This document shows positions 586-15,688 of a stretch of DNA of 64,000 nt, piece by piece. The DNA lies in NCBI GenBank assembly GCA_964450885.1, contig CAYVFE010000001.1:310572-374571 (forward strand), in the 5' to 3' direction. The notes beneath the pieces are model-generated. The model ran no database searches. It was not told the origin of the DNA and saw only the letters and a list, made by a program, of their open reading frames with translations. The stretch is from an uncultured Gammaproteobacteria bacterium. GTDB lineage: Bacteria > Patescibacteriota > Microgenomatia > Levybacterales > GWA1-39-11. Position 1 is the first letter of the stretch, and each line of letters begins with the position of its first letter. The position numbers and the translations under genes were made by a program.

Positions 586-1320
586 ATGGCAGAGAACGAT
601 ACTCCTTTTAAAATTCAATTCCTAAAAAAAGAAAAGCTGACAAAAGACACTTATTCTTTTTATTTCAAAAGAGATAAAAAATCGCGCGATTTTATAGCAG
701 GCCAGTATTTCGAGATAAAGCTTAGGATAAAAAATCCAGATGAGCGGGGAGACTCACGCGTCTTTACATGCTGCTCCAGCCCTACAGAAAAAGACCACTA
801 TATGATAACAACACGCATCATCGAAAGTACATTTAAGATAGAGCTTGGCAAATTGAAAAAAGGTGACATCGTGCAGTTTAACGGTCCGTGGGACGATTTG
901 AATTTTGATGAATCAGAGGAGTTGCCACAAGTGTTTTTCGCGGGTGGGATAGGGATTACGCCATTTCACTCGATAGTAAAATACGCGATCGATAAAAAGC
1001 TCGAGCTTCCTATGACGCTTTTTGTCTCGTGGTCTTCCATGGAAGAAATGATATTTGATGACTTTTTTAAAGATGCCGAAAAAAAACTAAAAGACTTCCG
1101 TTATATCCCTACGATAACTCACGCGCAGGACATAAAAGAATGGAAAGGCGAGACAGGACGCATCAGTGAGCGTTTGGTAAAAAAGTACATAAAAAAAGTC
1201 AGGAATAATAAGTTCCGTATCGCAGGGCCTCCGGGACTTGTGAAAGCTATGAAGGAGCTTTGCGTGCAGATGAATGTTCCGAAAGAAAACATAATAGCCG
1301 AAGAATTCGAAGGATATTAG
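586..1320 (+). CDS. Ferredoxin-NADP reductase-like FAD/NAD(P)-binding oxidoreductase
   Basis: FNR-like flavin-binding segment 'RVFTCCSSP'. NAD-binding motif 'GGIGITPF'. Size 244 aa. Confidence 0.6.
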   Translation: MAENDTPFKIQFLKKEKLTKDTYSFYFKRDKKSRDFIAGQYFEIKLRIKNPDERGDSRVFTCCSSPTEKDHYMITTRIIESTFKIELGKLKKGDIVQFNGPWDDLNFDESEELPQVFFAGGIGITPFHSIVKYAIDKKLELPMTLFVSWSSMEEMIFDDFFKDAEKKLKDFRYIPTITHAQDIKEWKGETGRISERLVKKYIKKVRNNKFRIAGPPGLVKAMKELCVQMNVPKENIIAEEFEGY

Positions 1321-1713
1321 ATGAAAGATGAACATTTTGAAAAACTCATCAATGATGGGATCGAGTCTATCCCGAAAGAATTTCTAGAAAAGCTTGAAAA
1401 CGTAGCGATAGTAATAGAAGACGAGCCAACATACGCACAGAGAGTAAAGCTCAGACTAAGACGCGGGATAACTCTTTTCGGTCTTTATGAAGGAGTATCG
1501 CTACTGCGTCGAGGTATGGGATACTCAGGAGTGCTACCCGATAAAATTACGATTTTTAAAAATCCTATCCTGAGATATGCGCGTGATGAGGATGACCTAC
1601 GAGAGATGGTAAGAAATACGGTTTGGCATGAGATAGCGCATCATTTTGGTATGAATGAGCACGAGGTGCGTCGAGCCGAAATGAGAAGGAGAAACTCCCG
1701 GACCAGTGAATAG
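1321..1713 (+). CDS. Putative small zinc metallopeptidase (Zincin_1/DUF1025-like)
   Basis: Motif 'WHEIAHHFGMNE' (HExxH). The ATG immediately follows the upstream stop. Confidence 0.5.
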   Translation: MKDEHFEKLINDGIESIPKEFLEKLENVAIVIEDEPTYAQRVKLRLRRGITLFGLYEGVSLLRRGMGYSGVLPDKITIFKNPILRYARDEDDLREMVRNTVWHEIAHHFGMNEHEVRRAEMRRRNSRTSE

Positions 1714-1908
1714 ACAACAATAATTATCTCCGGATTTACACCTGCTTTGTGACTTTTATTACAAATAGTTTGTGACATTTCATACATACAATAATCCCCT
1801 CAAATTGTAAGATAACTACACTATGAAATTGATCGCAGGACTTTTAAAAAGCATATTCAAAATACCTGTGATAGGAGACTTTTATATAGTCTTGGGAGGA
1901 GGTCTAAG

Positions 1909-2073
1909 ATGAGAGTAGAAATAGTTCCAATAAGTTTTAGAAGATTAAGGCAAAGTAGTGTAGGTAGCTACAAAGATTATCTGGATGAGTTGATAGGTAT
2001 GAAGTTGAGAGATTTGGATAGGGTAAAAGATACGATGAGCCCTCGACGAACTTTAAGAAGAGCAATCACTTAA
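1909..2073 (+). CDS. Small basic hypothetical protein (54 aa), not in the ORF track
   Basis: ATG at 1909 with a strong Shine-Dalgarno 'ggaggagg' 6 nt upstream. Open to TAA at 2071-2073. Confidence 0.3.
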   Translation: MRVEIVPISFRRLRQSSVGSYKDYLDELIGMKLRDLDRVKDTMSPRRTLRRAIT

Positions 2074-2141
2074 TTTATCCGACTTCACAAGGTTCGCTTT
2101 CGAGGGGTAGGACTCTCGAGAAATGTCAAAAAATATCAGAG

Positions 2142-2150
2142 TGTGATAAT
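2142..2150 (+). promoter_or_regulatory. Extended -10 element TGtGATAAT, 11 nt upstream of ATG 2162
   Basis: Sequence match to TGnTAtaAT. Confidence 0.3.
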
Positions 2151-2161
2151 ATACGAGTCAC

Positions 2162-2437
2162 ATGAGTGCAGAGCGTATAGTTCCATGCCAGTTCAATCCA
2201 CTAATAGACTGTGAGGCGCAGTGTACGCTATATAGTAAAGGGTCTCAATTCGTGAGTGAATTTAGTGAAGGATTTGAAATTCCAGAAAGCGCAGTAGCTG
2301 AAAAATTAAGAGCTCAATTTTCGATGCTTGATCCCAGGGAGCAAGACAAACTGATCAAGGGTAAAATAACTATCCTGGGGGAGAAGCAAATTGATCAGGC
2401 AAGCTGCATGAAATTCGATCCGCCACAGAGTAAGTAA
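2162..2437 (+). CDS. Hypothetical protein (91 aa)
   Basis: ORF preceded by an extended -10 element. No recognisable domain. Confidence 0.3.
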   Translation: MSAERIVPCQFNPLIDCEAQCTLYSKGSQFVSEFSEGFEIPESAVAEKLRAQFSMLDPREQDKLIKGKITILGEKQIDQASCMKFDPPQSK

Positions 2438-2452
2438 AGTCTCGTCACCATT

Positions 2453-2461
2453 CAGCCTCAA
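2453..2461 (+). repeat. Copy of the 9-mer cAGCCTCAA (followed by aaaa)
   Basis: Exact 8/9 match to the motif recurring at 6082, 12875, 12895 and 13881. Confidence 0.5.
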
Positions 2462-2523
2462 AAAAGTATTAATATACATATGTTCTCCTATTTTCAAGAG
2501 CATGAGAATGAGATTTGATAATG

Positions 2524-2559
2524 GAAAACATCATCGCTGAAGAATTCGAGGGACACTAG
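2524..2559 (+). repeat. Decayed copy of the 3' end of the FNR-like gene (mini-ORF M-ENIIAEEFEGH*)
   Basis: 30/36 nt identical to 1285-1320 (ENIIAEEFEGY*). The stop codon is retained. Confidence 0.6.
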
Positions 2560-2946
2560 TTATCTAATATACAGATACACTTTATTCTTCAATGCTTTAC
2601 ATTTCAAGCTAGGGAAAGGATAATAGTTGAGTAGTATTCTAGTCCCCATCTTCAATTCTTTGCTTAACTTTTCCTCCAGCTCCTGCATTACGTCTGGCAT
2701 GGGGTATATCACTGTTATGTCGTAGGGTGAAAGATCTACATCCCAGAAATTCTTATTATGTATCTTGATTTTTTTATCGAGTCTTTCTATCTTGATAAGC
2801 TCTCTGGATTCCTTAATTCGTTCTTCATCTAATTCGAATCCATCTACTAGAGCCCCGGATTTGGCAAAAGCTATTGCTATGCGTCCGTCGCCGCTTCCCA
2901 GATCTGCTACTTTTTCACCTTCTTTTACTTTTGAGAGTTCTATCAT
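2560..2946 (-). CDS. Small class I SAM-dependent methyltransferase-like protein (128 aa, possibly truncated)
   Basis: Motif I 'VADLGSGDGRIA' followed by an acidic post-I 'GFELDE'. Unusually short for a methyltransferase. Confidence 0.45.
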   Translation of the reverse strand: MIELSKVKEGEKVADLGSGDGRIAIAFAKSGALVDGFELDEERIKESRELIKIERLDKKIKIHNKNFWDVDLSPYDITVIYPMPDVMQELEEKLSKELKMGTRILLNYYPFPSLKCKALKNKVYLYIR

Positions 2947-3005
2947 AGTTTTTACTCTGTACCGCGAAGTTTTAAAATAAGGAATTAGTGGAATTTTATT
3001 AATAT

Positions 3006-4118
3006 TTACTTTAGCCTTTCAGAAATTATATTTACAAGCTTATCTATTCCATCACCGTTTTTTGCGCTGATGAAAGTTGGACTGAATCTGCTATATGCAG
3101 ATCTGATTTTTTCAATATCGAAATCTTTTGCATTCTCAATCTTGTTAAAGATATATAGTACTCTCCGCCTTTTTATTTTTAGATCCGCAAAAATTTGTTC
3201 TACTGTATATATTTTTTCGTCCTTGCGTGGGTCAGAGCTGTCTACAACGTGTAGGACTAAATCGCTATGAATTGACTCCAGAAGAGTGGATTTAAATGTG
3301 TTTATGAGTTGTGGAGGTAGGTCTTTTATAAATCCTATCGTGTCAGAGATATAGACTTCTTTTTGCAGAGGTTTTAGGTAAAACTTATTTACCGTACTGT
3401 CTAGGGTTGCGAAAAGCGCGTCTTCAACGAGATCGCTCTGCCCGGATAGCTTATTAAAAAGTGTGGTCTTTCCTGCATTTGTGTATCCGACCAGAGATAG
3501 GGTTTTCAATCCACCCTTTTTTCTATGATCTATCTGCTCCTGTTTTCTCTTAGACAGCGCATTGAGTTCATCTTGAATCCTCCCCTTTTCATTTCTCCAG
3601 TGCCGAAGCATCAGCTCAGTATTACTTTCCCCTGATCCCTTTGCGCCGATTCCTGCTGCTTGGTTAGACATCTCCATTCCCATACCATAAATCCTAGGTC
3701 CCATTTGTCTGAGCTTTGCAAATTTTATCTGGAGTTTTGCTTCAGCGGTTTTTGCATGCTTGCTAAATATTTCCAGAATCAGACTAACTCTATCCCATAC
3801 GATGATTTGTGGATTCGCTTTTTCGAATGCGAGTTTTAGTTCATGTACCTGTCCAGGTTTTATCGAGATATTTATGACTACTATATCTATCCTTTCTTTT
3901 TCTATTAGATCTATGACTTCTTCCACTTTACCGTGACCGATAAAAGTTCTTCTGTCACCACGGGTGCTGTTTTGAACTACTGCAGAAAATACTTTTCCTC
4001 CGTATGTATTAACTAAAGATTCTACTTCCTCAAATTCGGAAACAATGTCCTCGTTATCCTCTCCAGGATAGGACAATCCGATAAGCATAACTCTGGGAAC
4101 AACGGGTGGAATATACAT
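3006..4118 (-). CDS. hflX: GTPase HflX
   Basis: HflX N-domain 'FIGHGKVEEV'. G-domain 'LVGYTNAGKTTLFNKLSG', 'DTIGFI' and 'NKIE'. Confidence 0.85.
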   Translation of the reverse strand: MYIPPVVPRVMLIGLSYPGEDNEDIVSEFEEVESLVNTYGGKVFSAVVQNSTRGDRRTFIGHGKVEEVIDLIEKERIDIVVINISIKPGQVHELKLAFEKANPQIIVWDRVSLILEIFSKHAKTAEAKLQIKFAKLRQMGPRIYGMGMEMSNQAAGIGAKGSGESNTELMLRHWRNEKGRIQDELNALSKRKQEQIDHRKKGGLKTLSLVGYTNAGKTTLFNKLSGQSDLVEDALFATLDSTVNKFYLKPLQKEVYISDTIGFIKDLPPQLINTFKSTLLESIHSDLVLHVVDSSDPRKDEKIYTVEQIFADLKIKRRRVLYIFNKIENAKDFDIEKIRSAYSRFSPTFISAKNGDGIDKLVNIISERLK

Positions 4119-4164
4119 TCAGCTACATTATAACTTATGCACTCATAAGAACGCTCAGAAGCAA

Positions 4165-4197
4165 AATATAAACTCCGAAGAGTTCGAAGGTTACTAG
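4165..4197 (+). repeat. Second decayed copy of the FNR-like gene 3' end (..NINSEEFEGY*)
   Basis: 20/23 nt identical to 1298-1320. The differences are synonymous (gaa>gag, gga>ggt, tat>tac). Confidence 0.55.
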
Positions 4198-4224
4198 ATT
4201 GTTTTGTGGGAGTATAATGTAATT

Positions 4225-4626
4225 ATGAGAAAAGGTTATCATTCAAATATAGAGATTCTAACTGACGGAAACGAAAGTTTTAGAAAAGTCCTTTATACTG
4301 CAAAAAATTGCCAGCTAGTTCTGATGAGTCTCAATCCGTTAGAGGAGATAGGCATGGAAGTACATGATGATGGTGATCAATTCTTTAGGTTTGAAAGCGG
4401 CGAGGGTAAAGTCACTATTGATGATGCGGAATATAAAGTGAAAGATGGTGATGCAGTCATAGTGCCTGCAGGAAGCAGGCACAATGTAGTAAATATTTCA
4501 GAGACCGAGAAGTTAAAGCTTTATACAATTTATACTCCACCTCACCATAAGGACGGGATAGAAAGAGTTACGAAAGAGGAAGCCGAGAAAGACGGCCCGG
4601 AATTTGACGGAACGACTACTGAATAA
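4225..4626 (+). CDS. Cupin domain protein
   Basis: Cupin motifs 'MEVHDDGDQFF' and 'VIVPAGSRHNV'. The likely ATG is at 4225, 6 nt after TATAAT at 4213-4218 (the ORF track starts at TTG 4204). Confidence 0.6.
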   Translation: MRKGYHSNIEILTDGNESFRKVLYTAKNCQLVLMSLNPLEEIGMEVHDDGDQFFRFESGEGKVTIDDAEYKVKDGDAVIVPAGSRHNVVNISETEKLKLYTIYTPPHHKDGIERVTKEEAEKDGPEFDGTTTE

Positions 4627-4692
4627 CCCCAGCCTCCCTCCGGCACTAAAGTTTTGGCGGGCAGGCAAAATATCGCATTGAGGGTCACTAAG

Positions 4693-4701
4693 TGGTAGAA
4701 T
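4693..4701 (+). promoter_or_regulatory. Extended -10 element TGgTAGAAT, 6 nt upstream of ATG 4708
   Basis: Sequence match. Implies a leaderless transcript. Confidence 0.3.
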
Positions 4702-4707
4702 TTTTGC

Positions 4708-6075
4708 ATGACAAGCGTGGAATCATCAGAAGGTCAGTTAGCTTCTCCCGACCCGCTTAAAGAAGTCAAAAAAGAAGCAGCGAAAATCATAGGACTAGGT
4801 AGTGAAAGAAATCTTCAGGTATATATAACGATTTCCGGAGCTTTGCATGAAGGAATTCCTTCTATAGATCTTCTGGGAGAAATTGAGAGATCAGACATAT
4901 TGTCTTTGGAGCTTCCTTCAAATGTAGTTAGAGCCTTTGTGCAAGGGACCGAGACAAGAATTGATGATAATCCGTTTTGGGGAACTTCTATCGAAAATTC
5001 AAATTCAGCCGTGGGGGTAAATAATAATCGTGGTGCAGTAAATGGAATTAGGATTCTTGACGATAGGGTGCGTGAGGGGCAGACGATTCCACAAAATGTT
5101 CCCGATGTTGCAATAGGGGCAGCTAATATAAAGTATGGAAAAGGAAAAGACCTGGAGAGAGTTGAGATTTCCGAAAGTACGCTAATAGAAAATCTGAGAA
5201 AACAGCAAGAAGGTTTTGATGATATTTTTCCTGCAAAAACGATGGTGATGCAAGATGGCAAAGAATATTACATCCATATTAATAGACCAGTTGAAAATGA
5301 AGCATCGGCGCTTTTAATTACAGGGGGTTATATGCTCCCGACACAGTACATGATGGAGCGTGGTGAAGATATTTTTGGGGAAGAGACAGGTGGTATTACC
5401 GGAATTGAACTTTGTCAATTTGCGTTAAGTCATTTAATAAGAATGCAGGTCGATAAAGTTCAGGTAGAAGGTATGTTAAAAGACCTAAGAAAGAAGATGA
5501 GTAAGTATGAAACTGGTTCAAATATCAGACTAGTACACCTAGGCGGAGCAGCACACAATCCTAATATTCTGGGTATTTTAGATGAAGTTTTTGGTGAGCA
5601 AGAGGAAGTTAGGATAAATGAATTACATGATGAAAGAATGCCTGAGCCGGCTCTAGATAAGCTCACTTTTTTCGGTAGATTTATTCCAGCTCGGGACGCA
5701 CTAGAATGCGCGTCAGTAGTTGAGGATCAGGTTGTTGTAGATGTAGGCAAAACTGATGCTTTACTGCAAAAATTGGCATCAGAGCATGCAGATAAGCTTT
5801 TAGACTTTGCTAAAAGGGAAAAACTAGCACGGGACTTTGAGGATACTCTGCCTGAGTGTGATAACAGTGGTCAGGTAGAATATTTTGCTGTGCGAAGCTT
5901 GTTGTCTTTAGTTACTCCGGATGAAGTTGAAGGATCAGCATTACCTGATACTTCATATCCTTCTATGCTAGCGGAATACATAATTGAAAAGTATCCTGAT
6001 AAAAAAGACAGGGTAGAAAAAGTAACTGCGCAATATAATGATCGCAGATTTAATTTCCCACCCAGAAGACAATAG
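4708..6075 (+). CDS. Hypothetical protein (455 aa), no recognisable domain
   Basis: Long ORF with coding-like composition and its own promoter-like element. Sits at the edge of the defence cassette. Confidence 0.5.
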   Translation: MTSVESSEGQLASPDPLKEVKKEAAKIIGLGSERNLQVYITISGALHEGIPSIDLLGEIERSDILSLELPSNVVRAFVQGTETRIDDNPFWGTSIENSNSAVGVNNNRGAVNGIRILDDRVREGQTIPQNVPDVAIGAANIKYGKGKDLERVEISESTLIENLRKQQEGFDDIFPAKTMVMQDGKEYYIHINRPVENEASALLITGGYMLPTQYMMERGEDIFGEETGGITGIELCQFALSHLIRMQVDKVQVEGMLKDLRKKMSKYETGSNIRLVHLGGAAHNPNILGILDEVFGEQEEVRINELHDERMPEPALDKLTFFGRFIPARDALECASVVEDQVVVDVGKTDALLQKLASEHADKLLDFAKREKLARDFEDTLPECDNSGQVEYFAVRSLLSLVTPDEVEGSALPDTSYPSMLAEYIIEKYPDKKDRVEKVTAQYNDRRFNFPPRRQ

Positions 6076-6081
6076 CACCCG

Positions 6082-6090
6082 CAGCCTCAA
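6082..6090 (+). repeat. 9-mer cAGCCTCAA (followed by aaa), left flank of the defence cassette
   Basis: Lies 28 nt upstream of the -10 element of the PLD-SNF2 gene. An inverted repeat CTCAAA-N9-TTTGAG follows. Confidence 0.5.
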
Positions 6091-6114
6091 AACCCTCGCA
6101 TTTGAGTTCAGGAA

Positions 6115-9100
6115 GTGTTAAAATCTGGTATGAGTAACTTTATTACGAATAATGGAAATTCAGATCTTAAGCATCGCTTGGTAGAATTGATTAAGAAAAG
6201 TGACGAATTAAAGTTTCTTGTGGGCTTTTTCTATTTTTCAGGAATCAGGGAGCTATATGAAGGACTGAAGTCAAACCCAGATACTGTTATCAAGGTTCTG
6301 GTCGGCTTGAATATAGACAAAGCAGTGTTTGGATTAGTTGAGACTGAGAGTGAAGAAGAATCATCTGATGAAGAAAAAATATATAAGTTTATTGAATCTA
6401 TTAAAAAATCTCTTAATACTGAAGAATTTGATACGGAGGAATTTTACGAACAAGTACGTTTCTTCATCGAGCTTATCCAAAAAGATAAGCTAATCATTCG
6501 TAAAACTTACAACCCAAACCATTCAAAGCTTTATTTATTCAAATTAGAAGAGAATCAGGCTGTAAAAGAATTATTTATAACGGGCAGTAGCAACTTAACG
6601 AGGGCAGGACTTACCACTCAAAATGAGTTCAATGTGGAGATTAGTAGTTATGGCTTTGAAGATGCCGAGAAGTATTTTAATGACCTCTGGGATGAGGCCG
6701 TAAAGATTACAGAATTTCAAGAAATCAAAACAAAATTAGTTCAAATCATTGAAAAAGAAACTTTAATAAAAGATGTTACACCTTTTGAGGCTTTTTGTCT
6801 GGTTTTGAAAACCTATCTGGATACTTTTGAAGAAAAAGAAATAGGTGAGACATTAATAAAAACACTTGAAGAAAATGGGTATACACCATATCAGTACCAA
6901 TTAGATGCCGTTAAGCAGGCGCTGGCTACTATTGAAAAGAACAATGGTGTAATCGTGGCAGACGTTGTAGGACTTGGAAAAACAGTTATTGCTTGTGCAA
7001 TATCAAAACAAATTAACAAACGTGGCATTGTCATTTGCCCCCCAGGACTCATGGGTGATAGAGATGGAGGTTCGGGATGGGGAAAATATCTTGAAGAATT
7101 TGGACTTGATAATTGGAAGGTGTGGTCGCGCGGGGACCTAAAGATGGCTTTGAATTTTGTAAATAATGCAAAAGATATAGAAGTAGTTATTGTAGATGAA
7201 GCTCATTGGTTTAGAAATCAGGATACTGAAAACTACGAATTGCTTAAGAATATCTGTCGAGAAAAAAAGGTCATACTGCTTACAGCAACCCCATTCAATA
7301 ATCGTCCAGGAGATATTCTTGCACTACTAAAGCTCTTTATAACACCTAAGAAATCTACAATAACTCTTGAAAGCAACTTGGTCGATCAATTTAAAGCTTT
7401 TAAAGGAATGTTTGATCGACTCGGCTATATAAGAAAATATAAAAATTCTCTAAATGAATCGAAGAGATTAAAAGCTCATGCCTATTATAGATCTATATTC
7501 GAGGAAGACATCGTTGACCTGGAAAAAGTTAAACAAAAAGCTGGTTATCTTGCCAAACAAATAAGAAACGTTATAGAACCGGTGACGATAAGACGGAATA
7601 GATTAGATCTACAAAATCATCCTGTTTACAATAGTGAAGCAGATAATCTTTCAAAGGTTGATGATCCGAAGGAGTGGTTTTTTAAATTAACAAAAGAACA
7701 GTCGGAATTTTATTCAGAAATTCTCGAAGAATATTTTGGCGATCCAAATGAAGGAGGTAGATTCAAGGGTGCAATTTATCGACCTTTTGAGTACGAAAAA
7801 GGACTCAAATCGTTAAGTACAAATGAGGCTGAAGAAAAATTAAACCAAGATGATAATAGAGCCTTCCAACAACAGAGAAACTTATTCGACTTTATGAGGC
7901 GATTATTAGTTAAACGTTTTGAGAGTTCGTTTGGTTCATTTGAACAAAGCATAAAGAATTTTAAACAGATTACTCTAAGATGCCAGGAATTTGTCAACAC
8001 AACAGGTGAATACATACTTGATCGTTCACTGCTTGAAAAAATTTACGAGCTTGAGGCTGAAGAGATAGAAAAATATTTGTTAGAGTATGAAGAAAAAATA
8101 ACGAATGGTGAATATCCTAAAACTCACAAACGTTATAGAATCAAAGACTTCAAGAACAAGGAAGAGTTTATCCTAGACATTAAAAGCGACATTGACCTTT
8201 TTACAGAAATATTGGACAAATTAGCAAAATTAGAATTGGTGAAATATGACCCAAAAACAGAATGCCTACTGGAGAATTTACATGAGGAGTTCTCCAAAAA
8301 ACCTAATGGTGATGAACCCAAAAGAAAAATTATTATCTTTAGCGAATATGTAGATACCGTTCGATACCTTGAGGAGACACTAAAACAACACTATGGTAAT
8401 CGAATGCTTGTAGTGGCTGGAGATCTACCTAACTCAAAAATTGCCAAACTAAATAAAAACTTTGATGCCTCACATTCAGATCAGGATGATGAATTTGATC
8501 TTCTTTTGACTTCAGACAAAATTTCTGAGGGTTTTAACCTCAATCGTGCTGGAATGGTGGTAAATTATGATATTCCTTGGAATCCAGTGAGAGTAATACA
8601 GAGACTGGGACGAATCAATCGTATTAGTAAGAAAGTGTTTGAAAATCTGAATATTGTAAACTTCTTCCCTACAGAAAAAGGAGCAGAATTAGTAAAATCT
8701 AGAGAAATAGCGGCAAATAAAATGTTTCTTATACATTCAGCTCTTGGGGAAGACTCAAAGATTTTTGATTCAGACGAAGAACCAACCCCCGCAAGACTTT
8801 TTAGTAAAGTTCAACAAAATCCCGACGAACTTGAAGAGGAAAGTTTCTATACAAAAGCATATAAGGAGTATATGAAAATTACCAAAGATAATCCTGAGTT
8901 ATTCGAGAATCTCAAGAATTACCCCCCCCGCATAAAAGTTGCTAAAAACGGAAAGGAAAATGAGCTTTTGGTCTTTTTCACTAAAGGAAGATTGTATGTG
9001 AGCGGAACACAAACAGATCAGGAAAATATAAATCCATATTATCTGGTATTCGAAGATGTATTTGAGAAGATTATTTGTACGCCGAATGAAGAATCTCTGG

Positions 9101-9471
9101 ATTGGAATACAGATAAGTTTTGGTTATCTTATCAAGCTATTAAGGACTTTAAAGATTTCCGTCAAGGAATCGTCAACGAACAGAGTTTGGAACAAAAAGC
9201 ACAAAATAAGCTCGAAACACTTTTAAGGAGCCCCTTAGAAGAATTAATGCCATATAAAGATTTCTTAAGAATCCTGATGGAAGATATATTACATTTTGGT
9301 ACTTTGGCAGATTTTACACTTCGTAGAATTATGAATTTCACTGAGGACAGCACCAAAGATATTCAGGACTTGCGAAGCACTCTTGGAACGGATTATCTGA
9401 CAAAAGAAAAAGATAGGATCAAAGAGCAAAAGAAAGAAATCATTATTGCAATAGAGAATAAGAAAATATGA
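6115..9471 (+). CDS. Fusion protein: N-terminal phospholipase-D-family (HKD) nuclease domain plus SNF2-family helicase/ATPase
   Basis: PLD motif 'HSKLYLFK...ITGSSNLT'. SNF2 motifs I 'VVGLGKTVIA', II 'VIVDEAHWFRN', III 'LLTATPFNN', V 'LLTSDKISEGFNL' and VI 'QRLGRINRISKK'. The GTG at 6115 is probably not the start; the real start is likely ATG 6130. Confidence 0.85.
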   Translation: MLKSGMSNFITNNGNSDLKHRLVELIKKSDELKFLVGFFYFSGIRELYEGLKSNPDTVIKVLVGLNIDKAVFGLVETESEEESSDEEKIYKFIESIKKSLNTEEFDTEEFYEQVRFFIELIQKDKLIIRKTYNPNHSKLYLFKLEENQAVKELFITGSSNLTRAGLTTQNEFNVEISSYGFEDAEKYFNDLWDEAVKITEFQEIKTKLVQIIEKETLIKDVTPFEAFCLVLKTYLDTFEEKEIGETLIKTLEENGYTPYQYQLDAVKQALATIEKNNGVIVADVVGLGKTVIACAISKQINKRGIVICPPGLMGDRDGGSGWGKYLEEFGLDNWKVWSRGDLKMALNFVNNAKDIEVVIVDEAHWFRNQDTENYELLKNICREKKVILLTATPFNNRPGDILALLKLFITPKKSTITLESNLVDQFKAFKGMFDRLGYIRKYKNSLNESKRLKAHAYYRSIFEEDIVDLEKVKQKAGYLAKQIRNVIEPVTIRRNRLDLQNHPVYNSEADNLSKVDDPKEWFFKLTKEQSEFYSEILEEYFGDPNEGGRFKGAIYRPFEYEKGLKSLSTNEAEEKLNQDDNRAFQQQRNLFDFMRRLLVKRFESSFGSFEQSIKNFKQITLRCQEFVNTTGEYILDRSLLEKIYELEAEEIEKYLLEYEEKITNGEYPKTHKRYRIKDFKNKEEFILDIKSDIDLFTEILDKLAKLELVKYDPKTECLLENLHEEFSKKPNGDEPKRKIIIFSEYVDTVRYLEETLKQHYGNRMLVVAGDLPNSKIAKLNKNFDASHSDQDDEFDLLLTSDKISEGFNLNRAGMVVNYDIPWNPVRVIQRLGRINRISKKVFENLNIVNFFPTEKGAELVKSREIAANKMFLIHSALGEDSKIFDSDEEPTPARLFSKVQQNPDELEEESFYTKAYKEYMKITKDNPELFENLKNYPPRIKVAKNGKENELLVFFTKGRLYVSGTQTDQENINPYYLVFEDVFEKIICTPNEESLDWNTDKFWLSYQAIKDFKDFRQGIVNEQSLEQKAQNKLETLLRSPLEELMPYKDFLRILMEDILHFGTLADFTLRRIMNFTEDSTKDIQDLRSTLGTDYLTKEKDRIKEQKKEIIIAIENKKI
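6116..6124 (+). promoter_or_regulatory. Extended -10 element TGtTAAAAT, 5 nt upstream of ATG 6130
   Basis: Sequence match. Implies a leaderless mRNA for the defence operon. Confidence 0.35.
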
Positions 9472-12400
9472 GTGATGCAAGAAGTCTACTAGAATCAATC
9501 ATCGAGGAATATTCAGTAGAAAAGTTCACGAGATTTTTTCGTGAAAAGAGTCAAAAGTTTACACCCCGACAAGAAAGCTATTCCCGTTATGATGATGATA
9601 ACTTCACTAAAGGATTTAAAATAGGTGAAGTAAATTTTTCCGAGATTGACAACCTTACAATCTGCGCTTTTGAAGTTACCAAAGCATTATCCGAAAAATC
9701 TGGCAAAAAATCCCAATATGAACTTGGAAAAAAAATTCTAAAAGAAGCTCAAGCTGGTGCTGGTATTTTTATTTTTTACGATCAGAACGGTAACTTTCGT
9801 TTTTCCCTTATTTATCCAGAATCGATTGGCACAAGAAGACAATGGAACAACTTCCGGAGGTTTACATATTTTATCAGTCATGAATTTACAAATAAGACTT
9901 TTCTTAAGCAAATTGGCGATAAAGAATTTACAAAACTCGATGATATTAAAGCAGCCTTTTCTGTTACTGCAGTTACAGACATTTTTTATAAAGAATTTTT
10001 CGATCTATATAAAAAAATTGTTGAAGCAACCAAGAATTTGAACAAAATTGAAGATGATGATCAAGCACGAGACTTTGTTTTACTCTTTGCCATTAGAACT
10101 ATTTTTCTTGGGTTCATCCAAAAAAAGAAATGGTTAGGAGACGACGAAAAGTTTATACAAACTTTTTATCAGGAATACAAAGATAAATTTGCTAATAAAA
10201 ATGAGTTTTACAGTCGGTGGTTGTCACCATTGTTTTTTGAAGCTCTCAATTCTCCACAGGGGAGAAAAGTAGCATACGGAGATAACGATTTTTCAGAAGA
10301 AACTGCAAAAAAACTTCAAATGGCGCCATATTTAAATGGTGGACTCTTCAGAGAAAAATCTGGATACGATACGAATGGCTGGAAAATTCCAGATCAAGTT
10401 ATTGAAAACTTTTATGATTTTTTGTTCTCCCATAGCTTTACAATAGAAGAAAACTCTCTTGAGGATGAGGATCTTCAACTCAATCCGGAATTTTTGGGAA
10501 TTATTTTTGAGCGTTTGGTTAATAAAGCCGACGGAGCAGTTTACACACCCCGACCAGAAGTTGACCTAATGTGTCGTTTAAGTCTAGTTAAATGGCTTCG
10601 AAAGAATCTAGAATCATCGATAAGGGTTGAAAATCTATATGAACTTTTCTTCAAAGAAAGCGAGAATGAAGATGAGCAAAAAGATGGTAGCTTTTCTCCA
10701 AAAGAAGCGCAGGAGATTTTGAATATACTCGAGAATGTAGCCATATGTGATCCAGCAGTAGGTTCGGGTGCATTCTTAGTGGGCATGATGCAAGTTTTGG
10801 ATGATGTGGAGATAGCTTTAAGAAAGAAAGCGAATATAGAAGTTCACAATGATTTTGAACGAAAAAAGCAAATTATAAAAAAATCATTGTACGGAGTAGA
10901 AGTTAAGGAGTGGGCTGTGTGGATCTGCCAATTGCGACTTTGGCTATCTCTCTTTGTTGATGCACCAGAGGACCTAAAAGACTCAATGGACCCAATTTTA
11001 CCGAATCTTGACTTTAAGGTGAGACAAGGGGATTCCTTGGTCCAGTTAATAGGTTCAAGAAATGTTCCAGTATCAACAGATAATTCTTTAGTAAGTGGGA
11101 GTTTATTAAAAGAAATACGTGAACTTATACAGCTTAAGATTGCTCATTATGAAACAGGACAACCTTCTAAAGAAGATATCGAGCACCGTGAGTATCTTTT
11201 CTATCGAAACTGGATGCAGCAGGAAATTACTAAAGAACAGAACAAATTAGTTCAAATTAATCAAAACGAAAAGAACAATCAGAATCAACAATCACTGTTT
11301 AATGATAAGGTTGATTCAAAACCGATTAACTTGAATTTATTTCAAAAAGAAAGAGATGAAATAGTAGTAAAGCTTGAGCTACTCAGATCTCAACTTAGGG
11401 ATTTACATCGGACAAATAAGCCTTTCCTTTGGCAACTGGAATTTTCTGAAATATTTAGCACCAAAGGGGGGTTTGATATCGTCATCGGGAATCCACCTTA
11501 TGTTAGGCAAGAAGACATTGCAGACCCAACAGGCAAGGTAAAAGACAAAAAGGAATACAAGGGATATCTACAAGAAATGGTCAAGATGGATTTTCCCGAT
11601 TATTTTCCTCCTAAGGCAAAGATAAACGCCCAGTCTGATCTTTACACCTATTTTTACATACGAGCACTTCGTCTTCTTAATGCTCAAGGGGTTCATACTT
11701 TTATCTGTTCTAACTCTTGGTTAGATGTTGGCTACGGTGTGTGGTTACAAGAATTTCTTTTAAATCGCTGTCCAGTAGAAATTATTATAGATAACCACGC
11801 AAAAAGAAGTTTTGAGGCAGCTGATGTAAACACAATCATTTCAATCATTCATGCCCCTCAAAAAAGTGTCGAAGCTGATCATCTAGTTAAATTTGTAGCT
11901 TTTAAGAAATCTTTCGAATCCGCGATATTTACCGAAAACCTTATTTCCATTGAGCAAGAAAAAGAAGTAGAAACTAATGACATTTATCGTGTATATCCAA
12001 TATCAATTACGAATCTCAAAGAAGCAGGCACCGAGTTTGATGGTGATTCTCAAGCAAGGCTGAAAGTGGGTAAATATGTAGGTGATAAATGGGGTGGCAA
12101 ATATTTAGTAGCTCCAGATTTTATATTTAATATTTTAGTCAATCCTTTAGATAGGATCATTAAATTTAAGTCAGTCTTTAACCATTCTCAAAGAAATAAT
12201 CTTTCCGTATTTCAAGATAAAGCTAAAGTGGAAAAAAAAGACGGCACAATTCCTTACCTTTCTTCTATTAAAGACGTCAACACTATAAAAATCGACAAAA
12301 ATAATTTGAAGTATTGGATAAAAGGAAAAAGTAGTGAAATCAGTGATATGTTTGTTCCAGATGTTATATCTAACAGGTTTGTGTCGGATAGGATTTTCTT

Positions 12401-12869
12401 TTTAGAAGGAGGTAATTTTGCAATTTCAGATACCTTTTTTCTGCTAAAAATTACGAGTTTATATAGTAAAGAACAAGTATTATCGTTGTTAAATAGCACA
12501 TTCTCGTTATTGATAACCGAGATATTAGGACGAAAAAATTTGGGAGGTGGGTTATTAACAATTTACGGATATGAACTGGAAAGATTTTATATTGTTAATC
12601 CAACGCTGATTAAAAATAATAGACGTATACTGATTTACTATAAATCATTATCAGAAAGAGTAATCGGATCTGTTTTTGTAGAGTGTGGGATTGATCCAAG
12701 ATCAGAGACACCAATAGATGAACAGGATCCCAAGCCATTATCTGATAGAGCTGAACTGGACAATATTGTTTTTGACGCATTGAAACTTTCTGAAGATGAA
12801 CGTAAGGATGTCTACCGTGCAGTTTGCAGACTAGTTTGGAACAGGATCAGTAAAGCAAATAGCGTATAG
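9468..12869 (+). CDS. Large Eco57I-family (gamma-class) N6-adenine DNA methyltransferase with long N- and C-terminal extensions (PglX/DrmMI/Type IIG-like)
   Basis: Motif I 'ICDPAVGSGAFLVG' precedes motif IV 'VIGNPPYVRQ'. The start overlaps the upstream stop (ATGA), indicating translational coupling. Confidence 0.85.
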   Translation: MSDARSLLESIIEEYSVEKFTRFFREKSQKFTPRQESYSRYDDDNFTKGFKIGEVNFSEIDNLTICAFEVTKALSEKSGKKSQYELGKKILKEAQAGAGIFIFYDQNGNFRFSLIYPESIGTRRQWNNFRRFTYFISHEFTNKTFLKQIGDKEFTKLDDIKAAFSVTAVTDIFYKEFFDLYKKIVEATKNLNKIEDDDQARDFVLLFAIRTIFLGFIQKKKWLGDDEKFIQTFYQEYKDKFANKNEFYSRWLSPLFFEALNSPQGRKVAYGDNDFSEETAKKLQMAPYLNGGLFREKSGYDTNGWKIPDQVIENFYDFLFSHSFTIEENSLEDEDLQLNPEFLGIIFERLVNKADGAVYTPRPEVDLMCRLSLVKWLRKNLESSIRVENLYELFFKESENEDEQKDGSFSPKEAQEILNILENVAICDPAVGSGAFLVGMMQVLDDVEIALRKKANIEVHNDFERKKQIIKKSLYGVEVKEWAVWICQLRLWLSLFVDAPEDLKDSMDPILPNLDFKVRQGDSLVQLIGSRNVPVSTDNSLVSGSLLKEIRELIQLKIAHYETGQPSKEDIEHREYLFYRNWMQQEITKEQNKLVQINQNEKNNQNQQSLFNDKVDSKPINLNLFQKERDEIVVKLELLRSQLRDLHRTNKPFLWQLEFSEIFSTKGGFDIVIGNPPYVRQEDIADPTGKVKDKKEYKGYLQEMVKMDFPDYFPPKAKINAQSDLYTYFYIRALRLLNAQGVHTFICSNSWLDVGYGVWLQEFLLNRCPVEIIIDNHAKRSFEAADVNTIISIIHAPQKSVEADHLVKFVAFKKSFESAIFTENLISIEQEKEVETNDIYRVYPISITNLKEAGTEFDGDSQARLKVGKYVGDKWGGKYLVAPDFIFNILVNPLDRIIKFKSVFNHSQRNNLSVFQDKAKVEKKDGTIPYLSSIKDVNTIKIDKNNLKYWIKGKSSEISDMFVPDVISNRFVSDRIFFLEGGNFAISDTFFLLKITSLYSKEQVLSLLNSTFSLLITEILGRKNLGGGLLTIYGYELERFYIVNPTLIKNNRRILIYYKSLSERVIGSVFVECGIDPRSETPIDEQDPKPLSDRAELDNIVFDALKLSEDERKDVYRAVCRLVWNRISKANSV

Positions 12870-12874
12870 TTGTC

Positions 12875-12883
12875 TAGCCTCAA
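12875..12883 (+). repeat. 9-mer TAGCCTCAA (copy A)
   Basis: Exact repeat of 12895-12903 and 13881-13889. Context ttgtcTAGCCTCAA. Confidence 0.5.
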
Positions 12884-12894
12884 TTGCTTTTGCT

Positions 12895-12903
12895 TAGCCT
12901 CAA
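12895..12903 (+). repeat. 9-mer TAGCCTCAA (copy B), 3 nt upstream of TATAAT 12907-12912
   Basis: Exact repeat. Context ttgctTAGCCTCAA. Confidence 0.5.
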
Positions 12904-12920
12904 GAGTATAATCCTACATC

Positions 12921-13841
12921 ATGAATAGTAATTCATTCAATATTGTTTATAAAAACAGTACTTCAAAAAACAAAGGTTACAGTCTTGAAATCTTAGGAAG
13001 CTCATTAGTTGGAGTTAATAAAATTATAAAGGAATTTGTTGACATTGCAAATTTTAATAACGAATTAGATATTAAAGTTAATAATGTTAAGAACGGGTCT
13101 ATAATTATTGAATTACTGTTCTATATAGATTTTCATCTGCTTTTTACAAACATTCAGGATCTATATAATTTTCTTTTAGTAGCAGATCCAAAACAGTATA
13201 AGGAGGTTGCTGAGTTTTTCTCTAATATAGATGGTGCACATAAATCAATTAACAATTATTACTCTCAATTTCCACTAACTGGTGAGATTAGTATGATGCT
13301 GATAGGGATATATATTGGCCGTATGATGCATATGAGTGGTAAGCAGAAAGAACAACTAACATTGAAAGATGAAAACGGTAATAAATTTCCCATAAAATAC
13401 GCTCAGAGGCTTCAAAATTTTGTGAAAAGAGGAGGATTTAAAAAGGCGCTTAGTCCAATTGTTGAAGGCGATGCAGAAGAAATAATTATGGAGCAGGCTG
13501 AAGTGCGGTTTAAGATTAGCGAAGAGAATATTGAGAACTTTTTACCTGAAGATGATCAAATCTTACCAGAGTATGAGGATGGGATGAATATTACTTTTAC
13601 GGGAAAAATTGTCGCCTTGCAAAGTACGAAAGGTGAGAGTGTTAAATTTAAAGCTAATGAAATTAATTCAGAGCTCTCTCTTTTAACTGCATATCCCGAA
13701 GAGGGTAAGGGCAGCGAGGAGTATGTCAATTTTTACAAAAAGGATATCGTATTAAGATCACAGATATATAGGAAATCTATGTATGTAAGACCAGCAATAC
13801 TAATAAAATCTGTTGAATTAATGCAAGAACAACTTATTTAA
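12921..13841 (+). CDS. Hypothetical Asn/Ile-rich protein (306 aa), third gene of the cassette
   Basis: ORF 52 nt downstream of the methyltransferase. No recognisable motif. Confidence 0.5.
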   Translation: MNSNSFNIVYKNSTSKNKGYSLEILGSSLVGVNKIIKEFVDIANFNNELDIKVNNVKNGSIIIELLFYIDFHLLFTNIQDLYNFLLVADPKQYKEVAEFFSNIDGAHKSINNYYSQFPLTGEISMMLIGIYIGRMMHMSGKQKEQLTLKDENGNKFPIKYAQRLQNFVKRGGFKKALSPIVEGDAEEIIMEQAEVRFKISEENIENFLPEDDQILPEYEDGMNITFTGKIVALQSTKGESVKFKANEINSELSLLTAYPEEGKGSEEYVNFYKKDIVLRSQIYRKSMYVRPAILIKSVELMQEQLI

Positions 13842-13872
13842 AATAAAAAAATAACTACACATTCAATTAAAT

Positions 13873-13880
13873 GCTATAAT
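13873..13880 (+). promoter_or_regulatory. Extended -10 element TGcTATAAT
   Basis: Identical element to 39223-39230. ATG follows 9 nt later. Confidence 0.35.
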
Positions 13881-13889
13881 TAGCCTCAA
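13881..13889 (+). repeat. 9-mer TAGCCTCAA (copy C), right flank of the cassette, directly abutting ATG 13890
   Basis: Exact repeat. Confidence 0.5.
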
Positions 13890-14057
13890 ATGCCGCATCA
13901 ATTTATGTCAATTATTTGCTTGAAGTGTAATAAGGACTATTGTCCTGTTTGTAAGCCTGCCTGTCCAAAGTGTCATACATTTGATGATGCAGATGAAAAG
14001 ACTCTAAAAATCCGTTCTCAGATGAGGCGTCATGGGATGCTAGAAAAAATGAATTAA
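13890..14057 (+). CDS. Cys-rich micro-protein (55 aa), not in the ORF track
   Basis: Cys pattern CxxC-x4-C-x2-C-x3-C-x2-C in 'MPHQFMSIICLKCNKDYCPVCKPACPKCHTF...'. Own extended -10 element. Confidence 0.3.
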   Translation: MPHQFMSIICLKCNKDYCPVCKPACPKCHTFDDADEKTLKIRSQMRRHGMLEKMN

Positions 14058-14081
14058 GTCTCTTAAGAAAATGGGTAGGGG

Positions 14082-14675
14082 TTAGGCTTTTTTGGTGGGT
14101 TTTTTCTTCGACTTTGTTTTTTTACCTGTGGGTTTTTTCGGTTTTTCTACAACTTCCTCAGTTGTTTCCTCGCCCTCCATAGCTTTGGCGTCGGAGGGTT
14201 CTCCAGCTATTTCCTCTGACTCTTCTTTCTCCAATTCATCTTGAGCAAAATTTAGTATCTCTAAAATTTTATCCAGTTTTGCATTTATCTCACTTAGCTC
14301 TTTTCCAGAACCGTTCGTGATGCGTCTAGAGTCTCCGCCTTTTCCTTCAAAGCACCTACTACATAAAGTGTCTTTTCTCTCGTTAGGACGGAATGGGACT
14401 CTGCAGTTGGCACCACAATTTGCGCATACTGCCTCAAACATTTCTCGTTCTGATCTGTCGTTACTTCTGGAGAATCTGTCGTGTCCGCGTCCTGCATCTC
14501 GTCCTCGCGATTCTTCTGGAGAGTGCTTTTTAAAACAATTCCTGCAGTAAACAGGCCTTCCGTTAGATGGCTTAAATGGAAGTTCACAGAACTTACCACA
14601 GTCAGCACACGTTGCTTTAAAAGTTTCGCGATCTGATCCTCTATCAAAGCTTCTATCTCTATTAAAATTTCCCAT
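14082..14675 (-). CDS. Tandem zinc-ribbon protein with a lysine-rich C-terminal tail
   Basis: Two repeats of C-x2-C-x4-C-x2-PF(K/R)P-x(4-7)-C-x2-CF. Tail 'KKPTGKKTKSKKKPTKKA'. Confidence 0.55.
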   Translation of the reverse strand: MGNFNRDRSFDRGSDRETFKATCADCGKFCELPFKPSNGRPVYCRNCFKKHSPEESRGRDAGRGHDRFSRSNDRSEREMFEAVCANCGANCRVPFRPNERKDTLCSRCFEGKGGDSRRITNGSGKELSEINAKLDKILEILNFAQDELEKEESEEIAGEPSDAKAMEGEETTEEVVEKPKKPTGKKTKSKKKPTKKA

Positions 14676-14791
14676 TAGGTATATTATACATTACTCTAGG
14701 ATAAATAGTGTGAGTAAAATATAAATTCTTAAATCCTACTACTTCTTAAATTTGAATCCGCTTATCCAGTCTACTGTATAATGGATTACTG

Positions 14792-15688
14792 ATGAAACAT
14801 TATATTCATATTCGAAAGTTCTTAATCCAGCATAGGATGAATATTGCTCTCTATATCATGGCGTTCGTGATTTCATTTCTCGTTATATTTCTTGCCTCGA
14901 TTTATAGTAACTCTCAGATACAAAATGATAGTGTCGTTCAAAATCAATCTCCCGCAACCCCTTCTATACCTGAAATTATTCCTTTTACATCTTACGAAAA
15001 ACCCGATTTAGCGCCTGCCGAGGTGTATAATATTTATCTCATTGGTGACTCCATGACTCACGCATTTGGTCCGCGTGGTGGAGTCTTTAATGAAATAATA
15101 TCTAGAGAGTATCCAAACTCTTTTTTCGAAATTTCAAATTATGCTATGGCTAACCAAAACATACTGCTTCTTCCAGAGCGCTTAAAGCAAAGCGTTCAGG
15201 CGGATCATGATTTGCTACTAGTTCCGATACTAGAGGGTGATCCTGATCTTATAATTATCGAATCTTTCGGATATAATCCGCTTTCACAGTTCGGAATAGA
15301 GGAGGGGCTAAAGAGGCAGGAAGAATTGCTGACAGAAGTAATGACAACTCTAACCAACCGTTTTCCAAATGCTTCCGTAATGTTTTTTGCTGCGATCGCG
15401 CCAGATAAAACTACCTACGGACAAGCTGTAACTGAATCTAGTGCTGAAGCGCGATGGGCGCAGGCCGAAGAACGGATAGAGTACATAACAAATCACATAG
15501 ATTATGCTAACGAACATAATATTCCTGTTATCAATGCGTATGCTGAGTCGCTTGATTTAGATGGAGATGGTGACACGCTATACATAAATCCGGATGATAA
15601 TATTCATCCATCTGCAGAAGGATTGGCTCTGATGGGAAGAATTATGACCAGAAGAATTCAGGAAGAGAATATTTTCCCTACTCAGTAA
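14792..15688 (+). CDS. SGNH/GDSL-family hydrolase with an N-terminal transmembrane segment
   Basis: Motif 'IYLIGDSMTHAFG'. C-terminal 'DNIHPS'. Confidence 0.55.
   Translation: MKHYIHIRKFLIQHRMNIALYIMAFVISFLVIFLASIYSNSQIQNDSVVQNQSPATPSIPEIIPFTSYEKPDLAPAEVYNIYLIGDSMTHAFGPRGGVFNEIISREYPNSFFEISNYAMANQNILLLPERLKQSVQADHDLLLVPILEGDPDLIIIESFGYNPLSQFGIEEGLKRQEELLTEVMTTLTNRFPNASVMFFAAIAPDKTTYGQAVTESSAEARWAQAEERIEYITNHIDYANEHNIPVINAYAESLDLDGDGDTLYINPDDNIHPSAEGLALMGRIMTRRIQEENIFPTQ

Follow-up and report, generated by a model that had tools for sequence, protein, structure and literature searches.

The 64,000-nt stretch of contig CAYVFE010000001.1 analysed here (hereafter, the window) carries near its left end an intact gene for an FNR-like oxidoreductase, the 3' end of which recurs at two downstream sites. 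Both additional copies are displaced former ends of the gene (relics 2 and 3), each lying beside DNA that follows an intact FNR gene in a relative. The related loci, numbered with the prefix L, were retrieved through the FNR protein and then compared with the proteins of the window. The three gene ends are:

586-1320, + strand: intact FNR-like oxidoreductase gene (244 aa; Pfam NAD_binding_1/FAD_binding_6), the last 36 nt of which (1285-1320) constitute copy 1.
2524-2559, + strand: copy 2, or relic 2, a displaced former FNR 3' end (nhmmer E=3.6e-8; colinear with the FNR/methyltransferase junction of L113).
4140-4197, + strand: copy 3, or relic 3, a former FNR 3' end that is older and has decayed further (secure part 4159-4197, encoding KQNINSEEFEGY and stop; nhmmer E=1.7e-7; tblastn 60% identity over 20 aa).

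By direct reading the gene ends in GAAAACATAATAGCCGAAGAATTCGAAGGATATTAG, encoding ENIIAEEFEGY and stop. Copy 2 (GAAAACATCATCGCTGAAGAATTCGAGGGACACTAG, encoding ENIIAEEFEGH and stop) is identical to it at 30 of 36 nt and has an ATG just before it; copy 3 ends at 4197 in AAGCAAAATATAAACTCCGAAGAGTTCGAAGGTTACTAG and matches copy 1 at 20 of the last 23 nt, as first noted in the preliminary description, and at 30 of the last 39. The stop codon and the + strand are retained in both relics. As the C-terminus ..IIAEEFEGY is common to more than 100 FNR homologues, all from bacteria of the candidate phyla radiation (CPR) and several of them named Candidatus Levybacteria, the repeats are recognisable as that of the FNR family, in whose fold the C-terminal aromatic residue stacks on the flavin. 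In a repeat search the three copies ranked first among the direct-repeat families of the region, and the 14-mer GAAGARTTCGARGG, allowing at most one mismatch, matched three times in the 64 kb, every match being on the + strand and one of the copies, against a chance expectation of 0.14 (three matches were reached in 0 of 100 shuffles). A nhmmer profile built from 12 orthologous FNR 3' ends, searched against the window and 14 related loci, recovered both relics together with another in L011 (E=1.7e-6), the next-best match being noise at E=0.64. The recurrence of the gene end at two downstream sites, proposed in the preliminary description, is thereby confirmed, and the motif is not one that arises frequently by chance.

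The left edges of the relics are less uniform. Homology of relic 2 to FNR begins only at 2524, and copy 3 very probably reaches left to about 4135-4140, judging from the alignment of LCTHKNAQ with LCVQMNVP in the gene (14 of 24 nt identical; 10 of 18 over an 18-nt part, P ~0.006 relative to random window segments). Over the three FNR relics, that of L011 included, the edges fall at -36, about -33/-40 and about -58/-63. Searches by tblastn (E<=10) found no remnant of the FNR body upstream of either window relic, and no hidden FNR paralogue in the window.

The surroundings of these gene ends are best understood from the related loci. Distant Levybacteria (L004-L010, TopA ~64%) have a UvrD-like helicase gene followed by FNR and a convergent RmuC gene, the stops of the latter two being 4 nt apart in L004 and L005 and overlapping in L006. 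Since FNR and RmuC abut in this outgroup, all DNA between them in the window has been added. The near relatives are about equally distant from the window (TopA 81-83%), and five of them show four different contents between FNR and RmuC; the last three entries below give the start of the region in relatives whose contigs stop short of RmuC:

L003 and L015: a 54-aa open reading frame (ORF), orf54, only.
L099 and L102: cupin gene and orf56.
L096: GIY-YIG, methyltransferase and HflX genes, all leftward.
L002: Zincin, GIY-YIG, a toxin-antitoxin pair, protease and zinc-finger genes, then leftward methyltransferase and HflX genes.
L113: methyltransferase gene directly abutting FNR; the contig ends before RmuC.
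L014: cupin, GIY-YIG, orf54 and an ArsR/MarR gene; the contig ends before RmuC.
L011 and L107: a helicase block of five genes, followed by GIY-YIG and restriction-modification genes; the contigs end before RmuC.

FNR lies tight against its neighbour in these loci, overlapping it by 4 nt in L113 and by 5 nt in L096 and leaving 18 nt before the cupin start in L099, and the adjacency of HflX and RmuC is conserved in L002 and L096. On this comparison positions 1321-15677 of the window are an accreted, hypervariable island between the convergent core genes FNR and RmuC. An accreted variable region had been proposed in the preliminary description, together with a comparison against relatives; the intervening segments are indeed absent from related loci, and the region extends over 1.3-15.7 kb. 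A metagenome scan with the FNR alignment, using overly general patterns, returned only relatives of at most 47% identity. The flanking genes also vary in their divergence: FNR is 64-80% identical to that of the window in L003, L015, L096 and L099, though TopA is uniformly 83%, and for RmuC the near relatives, among them L002 (TopA 81%), give identities of 77-88%. These identities suggest that the genes flanking the hotspot may themselves have been exchanged between lineages.

That the relics were once genuine gene ends, as had been supposed, is supported by what lies to the right of each, which matches DNA found after the intact gene in a relative. From GAAAAC onward, relic 2 and the methyltransferase 3' end align colinearly with the FNR/methyltransferase junction of L113, where the intact genes converge and their stops overlap in CTAG. 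Relic 3, with the TATAAT box and cupin gene that follow it, aligns with the FNR end and cupin of L099, L102 and L014 and, by blastn, is colinear with that of L015 as well as L099. Empty counterparts of the disrupted junctions thus exist in relatives (L113 for relic 2; L014, L099 and L102 for relic 3; L096 for the L011 relic), an outcome equally expected under integrase-mediated and recombinase-free models. Over the securely aligned parts, 16 of the 21 differences between relics and gene fall at third codon positions (five of six in relic 2), in excess both of a uniform spread (P=7e-5) and of the 46% expected for an identical duplicate that decays while the gene drifts synonymously (P=0.005). 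This bias indicates that the stubs were functional ends of other alleles until recently, and argues for protein-level selection in another allele until displacement. Relic 3 bears more non-synonymous changes than relic 2, which fits its being the older. Across orthologues, FNR 3' ends vary freely at third positions, with no visible constraint at the DNA level.

The segments that separate and follow the three gene ends comprise:

1321-1713, + strand: Zincin_1 metallopeptidase, first gene of block 1, its ATG directly after the FNR stop (Pfam E=3.6e-28).
1737-2105, + strand: orf54 module, the 54-aa ORF (1909-2073) with ~170 nt of conserved upstream DNA (blastn/tblastn matches in L003, L015, L011, L014 and L099).
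2162-2437, + strand: 91-aa ORF of unassigned function, with no family match and no homologue in related loci.
2483-2511: degenerate palindromic operator-like element, TTCTCCTATTTTCAAGAGCATGAGAATGA; copies of this palindrome stand on either side of an ArsR/MarR-type helix-turn-helix (HTH) gene in L011 and L014.
2512-2523, + strand: GATTTGATAATG, a leader (GATTTG..ATG) with vestigial start codon, recognised from comparison of operator flanks and forming the right-hand end of block 1 (junction A).
2560-4139, - strand: block 2, comprising a small methyltransferase (2560-2946), the GTPase HflX (3006-4118) and the HflX promoter (~4119-4139), defined by blastn, Pfam and promoter alignment.
4198-4626, + strand: cupin promoter (TATAAT at ~4214-4219) and Cupin_2 gene (4225-4626), directly after intact FNR in L014, L099 and L102.
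4708-15688: rest of the variable region, from ORF, Pfam, PADLOC and NCBIfam analyses, as itemised in the next six lines.
First gene of the 4708-15688 segment: 455-aa gene without family match.
6115-9471: HKD/SNF2 helicase (best PADLOC matches DrmD, BrxH and 'HKD+Snf2').
9468-12869: Eco57I/type IIG/DrmMI-like methyltransferase, 1133 aa.
After 12869 and before the zinc-finger gene: 306-aa gene without family match, then a 55-aa ORF.
14082-14675, - strand: zinc-finger protein.
14792-15688: GDSL/SGNH hydrolase.
15678-16640, - strand: RmuC gene, which forms the core flank on the right; in comparison with every orthologue, homology ends at 15708/15709.

Block 1 opens as the corresponding locus of L002 does, the adjacency of FNR and Zincin being shared (80% identical), and continues with orf54, which most relatives retain, usually just before the RmuC end. 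The upstream part of the orf54 module contains two 23-nt direct repeats, TTACAnnTnnTTTGTGACnTTT, at 1736-1781, and the module has no Rfam match. Operator-like palindromes of the form TTCTnATGTTCTyAAGAACATnAGAA occur in L002 (14721-14749), L011 (14568-14599 and 14982-15013) and L014 (7026-7057 and 7310-7341); the gene between them in L011 and L014 is an 89-aa ArsR/MarR regulator (HTH_5). The window and L002 have only a degenerate operator copy left, beside the methyltransferase 3' end, and L112 has an HTH_5 gene near its HflX-methyltransferase pair. The vestigial leader and ATG before relic 2 correspond to those of a gene that in L014 comes after the second operator; this ATG is thus the leftover of another gene, and block 1 ends at an arbitrary point. 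A decayed relic between the operator and the methyltransferase stop was also considered in L002 (18 of 36 by eye, with no nhmmer match), and is treated as absent or unproven.

Block 2 is more sharply bounded. Blastn homology of the methyltransferase-HflX block covers exactly 2560-4139 in L002 and 2570-4138 in L096, so that the block fills the entire space between the relics with no spare base on either side. It retains the conserved HflX promoter, CATAAGkTATAATGTAGC, the homology of which overlaps the left edge of relic 3 by ~5 nt (CTTATG vs CTTTGC; junction B). The methyltransferase, described as truncated in the preliminary description, turns out to be of ordinary length, its 128 aa matching the orthologues of L002 (131 aa) and L096 (129 aa) end to end; in more distant Levybacteria the protein has 146-149 aa and its gene overlaps the hflX stop. 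HflX and this methyltransferase form a conserved pair that occurs in other neighbourhoods in other Levybacteria, and are not typical cargo.

To the right of the cupin gene, positions 4708-13841 (the 455-aa gene, HKD+SNF2 helicase, methyltransferase and 306-aa gene) constitute a defence-like cassette found in none of the relatives, and no gene of 4708-15688 occurs in the related loci except for a homologue of the zinc-finger gene in L002 (35% identity). The island ends in a second irregularity. Homology of the window RmuC to its orthologues is lost 30 nt before the stop, and the last ~10 codons (15678-15708) are unrelated sequence (...ELGELKDKLPERTKITE and stop vs a consensus of ELGEVEEKEIKKL[IV]D and stop; likewise ...LKDKLPERTKITE vs EEKEIKKL[IV]D), which shares 11 nt with the convergent gene for the SGNH hydrolase. 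The RmuC 3' end of the window contains a rearrangement breakpoint.

A similar arrangement is found in L011 (FNR 82% identical). There, FNR is followed by five - strand genes, one of them for a DEAD-type helicase of 786 aa, then by an FNR-end relic reading LIAEEFEGY and stop, and then by a leftward GIY-YIG gene; the convergent FNR and GIY-YIG genes of L096 provide the intact counterpart of this last junction. The L011 stub arose independently of the window relics. L107 shares the helicase block (helicase 90% identical, upstream non-coding DNA nearly identical) and lacks the relic; as the stub is missing in this close relative of L011, such stubs are dispensable and can be lost without consequence. 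L011 also carries an RmuC 3'-end relic of ~60 nt at 14436-14495 (-) (nhmmer E=9e-7), right after an orf54-like gene and followed by the operator palindromes and ArsR/MarR gene, in mirror image of the FNR-end relics. Together with the replaced RmuC tail of the window, this stub places scars on both flanks of the hotspot, so that they are not specific to FNR.

Other features of L011 are recorded here in their own right. The helicase module encodes a 786-aa DEAD/Helicase_C 'helicase-related protein' along with a Cys-rich protein of 269 aa and either one or two paralogues of 235 aa, and lies at 5101-10574 in L011, 3445-8107 in L107 and 714-4622 in L108. A helicase-269aa-237aa module is also present in unrelated surroundings (L108-L111), with IMPDH as neighbour, and the helicase family spans Actinobacteria, Saccharibacteria and Verrucomicrobia. 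PADLOC matches of the helicase are marginal only (SngC, Cas3; E>1e-4), and the module is a possible uncharacterised defence system. Directly after the L011 FNR relic, at 10781-10815, lies a (CTAGAGA)n tandem repeat which is absent from L107 and which on the - strand encodes the ..SLVSSL C-terminus of the GIY-YIG protein.

We favour, with a probability of about one half, an explanation in which alternative versions of this hotspot were combined by homology-anchored, additive recombination without a dedicated recombinase. DNA from related strains carrying a different version of the locus would have been added twice, each time bringing its own FNR end together with the genes that follow FNR there, with a join to the resident chromosome that fell within the terminal 36-60 nt of the resident FNR gene. 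The working gene end would then come from the incoming allele, and the old end would stay as a stub beside its original downstream neighbour. The order of events would have begun with a cupin-type locus (FNR followed by cupin, as in L014 and L099), to which a methyltransferase-hflX-type locus (FNR convergent with methyltransferase and HflX, as in L113 and L096) was added, leaving relic 3, and then a Zincin/orf54/operator-type locus (as in L002), leaving relic 2. Homologous recombination within or to the left of FNR may have resolved one side of each event and an illegitimate or microhomology join closed the other, the mechanism being perhaps homology-facilitated illegitimate recombination, or integration of a circularised fragment through a single crossover. 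A join falling to the right of the stop would wreck the abutting neighbour, so that only joins leaving a complete old gene end would survive. That the neighbour abuts FNR and that the invariant ..EEFEGY must stay intact explains why every surviving stub runs through the stop. Mirror-image events at RmuC would produce RmuC stubs, neighbouring housekeeping genes may ride along, and the stubs, having no function of their own, would be lost over time. The serial displacement envisaged in the preliminary description is retained in this account, in that each block brought a replacement gene end and displaced the old one, in contexts that match relatives; the integrase-mediated, site-specific step is not.

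Several observations are those that such a process would leave behind. The duplicated segment is part of the anchor, stub and working copy are different alleles, and scars occur at the other flank of the hotspot (the L011 RmuC stub and the window RmuC tail). In Escherichia coli, DNA with homology on one side only was mostly integrated with duplication of a portion of the anchoring homologous region (PMC3240628). Arbitrary joins with short microhomology may be reflected in the position of junction A, directly behind the vestigial ATG, and in the ~5-nt overlap at junction B, the one junction at which microhomology was seen.

Other observations weigh against this explanation. All three FNR stubs and the RmuC stub (~60 nt) measure at most 60 nt, and if illegitimate joins fell at random along a 735-nt gene, some longer stubs should result; stubs this short would call either for a preference of the joins for the end of the homology or for deletions that trimmed them later. 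A 33-58-nt direct repeat of a conserved gene 3' end is, moreover, the classic signature of a tyrosine-integrase attachment (att) site, and the L011 helicase block is a horizontally mobile module present in unrelated contexts. Crossover within 36-58 nt at ~83% identity would be inefficient, so that the single-crossover variant needs alleles that were formerly more alike, and relatives with long flanks reach at most 83% FNR identity. The 11.5-kb segment from cupin to SGNH hydrolase could instead have entered between hflX and RmuC of an L096-like ancestor, an option for which the conserved adjacency of HflX and RmuC in L002 and L096 speaks; the relatives used, about equally distant, are compatible with either direction of the oldest event.

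The strongest competitor is serial site-specific integration at the FNR 3' end, by elements whose attP site carried a copy of the gene end and whose integrase was later lost, as in cis-mobilizable elements (CIMEs), or is encoded elsewhere. We rate such integrase-driven accretion as possible, yet lower than homology-anchored recombination. In its favour, integrative and mobilizable elements (IMEs) and integrative and conjugative elements (ICEs) use att sites that are 8-60 bp direct repeats at the 3' ends of housekeeping genes, and accretion of CIMEs is known (PMC5704250), a description that the 33-58-nt repeats of a conserved and restored gene end fit well. The array is tandem, defence genes lie downstream, two left edges out of three lie near each other (-36 and about -33/-40), and the independent L011 stub marks the same gene end beside a laterally mobile helicase module. 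The third edge (about -58/-63) deviates, although there are only three cases and different integrases could differ in this respect. Against this reading stands also the content of the blocks, as block 2 consists of hflX and its conserved partner with their own promoter and zero spare DNA, and block 1 ends inside a truncated operator-gene unit; the RmuC-end stub of L011 and the replaced RmuC tail of the window extend the effect beyond an att site in FNR.

The machinery that site-specific integration calls for was also sought directly. Pfam searches revealed no integrase, resolvase or transposase in the window blocks, the L011 block or the scanned window ORFs of at least 110 aa, which upholds the remark of the preliminary description that none is visible in the window. 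No recombinase family occurs among the called genes of ~20 related loci representing at least nine different island contents, and PADLOC, NCBIfam and Pfam identified no recombinase among the 455-, 306- and 287-aa window proteins or the 228-, 235- and 269-aa proteins of L011. The window contains no tRNA, and the junctions have no tRNA, tmRNA or Rfam match. A degenerate search for GARGARTTYGARGGNTAYTAR among the 2.9 million viral contigs of IMG/VR found no FNR-type gene end on a phage- or plasmid-like contig and no attP candidate, its three matches being unrelated proteins that merely end in EEFEGY. With the hflX content, the unequal left edges and the RmuC stub, these results do not bear out the integrase-mediated mechanism first proposed. 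Two further recombination systems were rejected outright: a dif/Xer reading (integrative mobile elements exploiting Xer, IMEX), given that the window has no skew switch and the repeat is conserved C-terminal coding sequence of the FNR family, and an integron cassette array, there being no IntI, repeats that are coding gene ends and not attC-like palindromes, and multi-gene blocks on both strands.

Rather unlikely, though broader in its implications, is the idea that the stubs, which occur at both FNR and RmuC and in two lineages, may be footprints either of a general, recombinase-free mode of building defence and variable islands in CPR bacteria or of a site-specific system with a recombinase of no known family. 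In the general process, hotspot versions from related strains would be stacked by homology-anchored recombination wherever convergent core genes abut, and only outcomes regenerating both gene ends would survive.

Tandem duplication of FNR, or of the locus, followed by deletions that spared only the last codons, had been offered earlier as an alternative, and we now consider it very unlikely. Three same-strand copies lie within 3 kb, and the deletion bias of small CPR genomes could trim pseudogenes in this way; there is, however, no trace of the FNR body upstream of the relics, the third-position differences (16 of 21) are unlike neutral decay of an identical copy, and the blocks between the copies are mutually unrelated and match different versions of the locus in different relatives.

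It is more improbable again that the stubs are functional, be it as a 12-codon micro-ORF (M-ENIIAEEFEGH and stop), as part of the hflX promoter, as an antisense terminator or as live recombination sites. Relic 2 does have an in-frame ATG and lies 9 nt after the operator-like palindrome, and the complement of relic 3 (4173-4189, -) contains a 7-bp hairpin followed by a T-run, TTTATATTTT, which is terminator-like and lies ~35 nt upstream of the hflX -10 box. This hairpin is probably incidental to the GAAGAGTTCGAAGG codons, and the ATG is accounted for by a lost gene, of which it was the start codon. The absence of the stub from L107, the sharing of the operator-methyltransferase junction by L002 with no detectable stub there, and the free variation of third positions in orthologous FNR 3' ends likewise speak against function. 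Concatenation of strain variants at a conserved gene end by the assembler is scarcely credible for all that the window comes from a metagenome-assembled genome in a population with many variants of the locus, given that no run of identical bases shared by the copies exceeds 11 (far under assembler k-mer sizes), that the independent Logan assembly L001 (8,249 nt) is 100% identical across the arrangement from FNR, via both relics, to the 455-aa gene, that the stubs are cut cleanly at 36-58 nt and are not whole genes, and that an analogous stub exists in an unrelated JGI contig (L011).

Parallels exist with several known kinds of variable locus. Integration hotspots between core genes, described in pan-genome studies, carry defence genes without a recognisable mobile element, the usual explanation for them being double homologous recombination in the flanks, a scarless process. 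FNR and RmuC likewise flank very different gene sets in relatives, including restriction-modification, DISARM-like and helicase modules; unlike such hotspots, this one retains gene-end stubs that would record additive, imprecise events. Partial tRNA gene arrays at genomic islands, such as the tycheposon islands of Prochlorococcus, arise from repeated integration at a tRNA 3' end, and resemble the present array in that a conserved gene end is the recurrent landing site and degenerate copies border successive blocks of cargo. Here, by contrast, the target is protein-coding, the window has no tRNA and no integrase-bearing element was found.

Accretion of ICEs, IMEs and CIMEs (of the ICESt1/ICESt3 type in streptococci; PMC5704250) is another parallel, with repeats of tens of bp that equal the 3' end of the target gene, incoming DNA that supplies a new end and leaves the gene intact, successive insertions that build an array of old ends, and decayed members without integration genes that are comparable to the window blocks. 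The window differs in that no integrase occurs in ~20 loci, one 'element' is the housekeeping pair of hflX and methyltransferase with no extra DNA, block 1 ends in a truncated operator-gene unit, stubs are also found at the opposite flanking gene and the left edges are inconstant. Homology-facilitated illegitimate or single-crossover integration, known from naturally competent bacteria and from conjugation in E. coli (PMC3240628), shares with our favoured explanation a homologous anchor on one side and an illegitimate join on the other, duplication of part of the anchor, stub and working copy that are different alleles, and independence from any site-specific recombinase. The experimental duplications spanned 109-950 bp, however, vs at most 60 nt for the window stubs, and microhomology here amounts at best to ~5 nt, at one junction only.

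For hotspots that carry defence genes and no mobile-element genes, gain of DNA is usually inferred, and in the present case scars of it survive. If homology-anchored recombination is correct, these scars would record additive, imprecise events that brought a new allele of the flanking gene together with cargo, in an uncultivated CPR lineage without genetics. They are a known kind of scar, and reveal no new biological system; their value lies in a clean worked example and in a search recipe based on profiles of flanking-gene ends. From the scars a relative sequence of events can be read, in which a housekeeping gene (hflX) would have been carried along, and they would constitute direct evidence for the growth of an integrase-free hotspot in a CPR genome.

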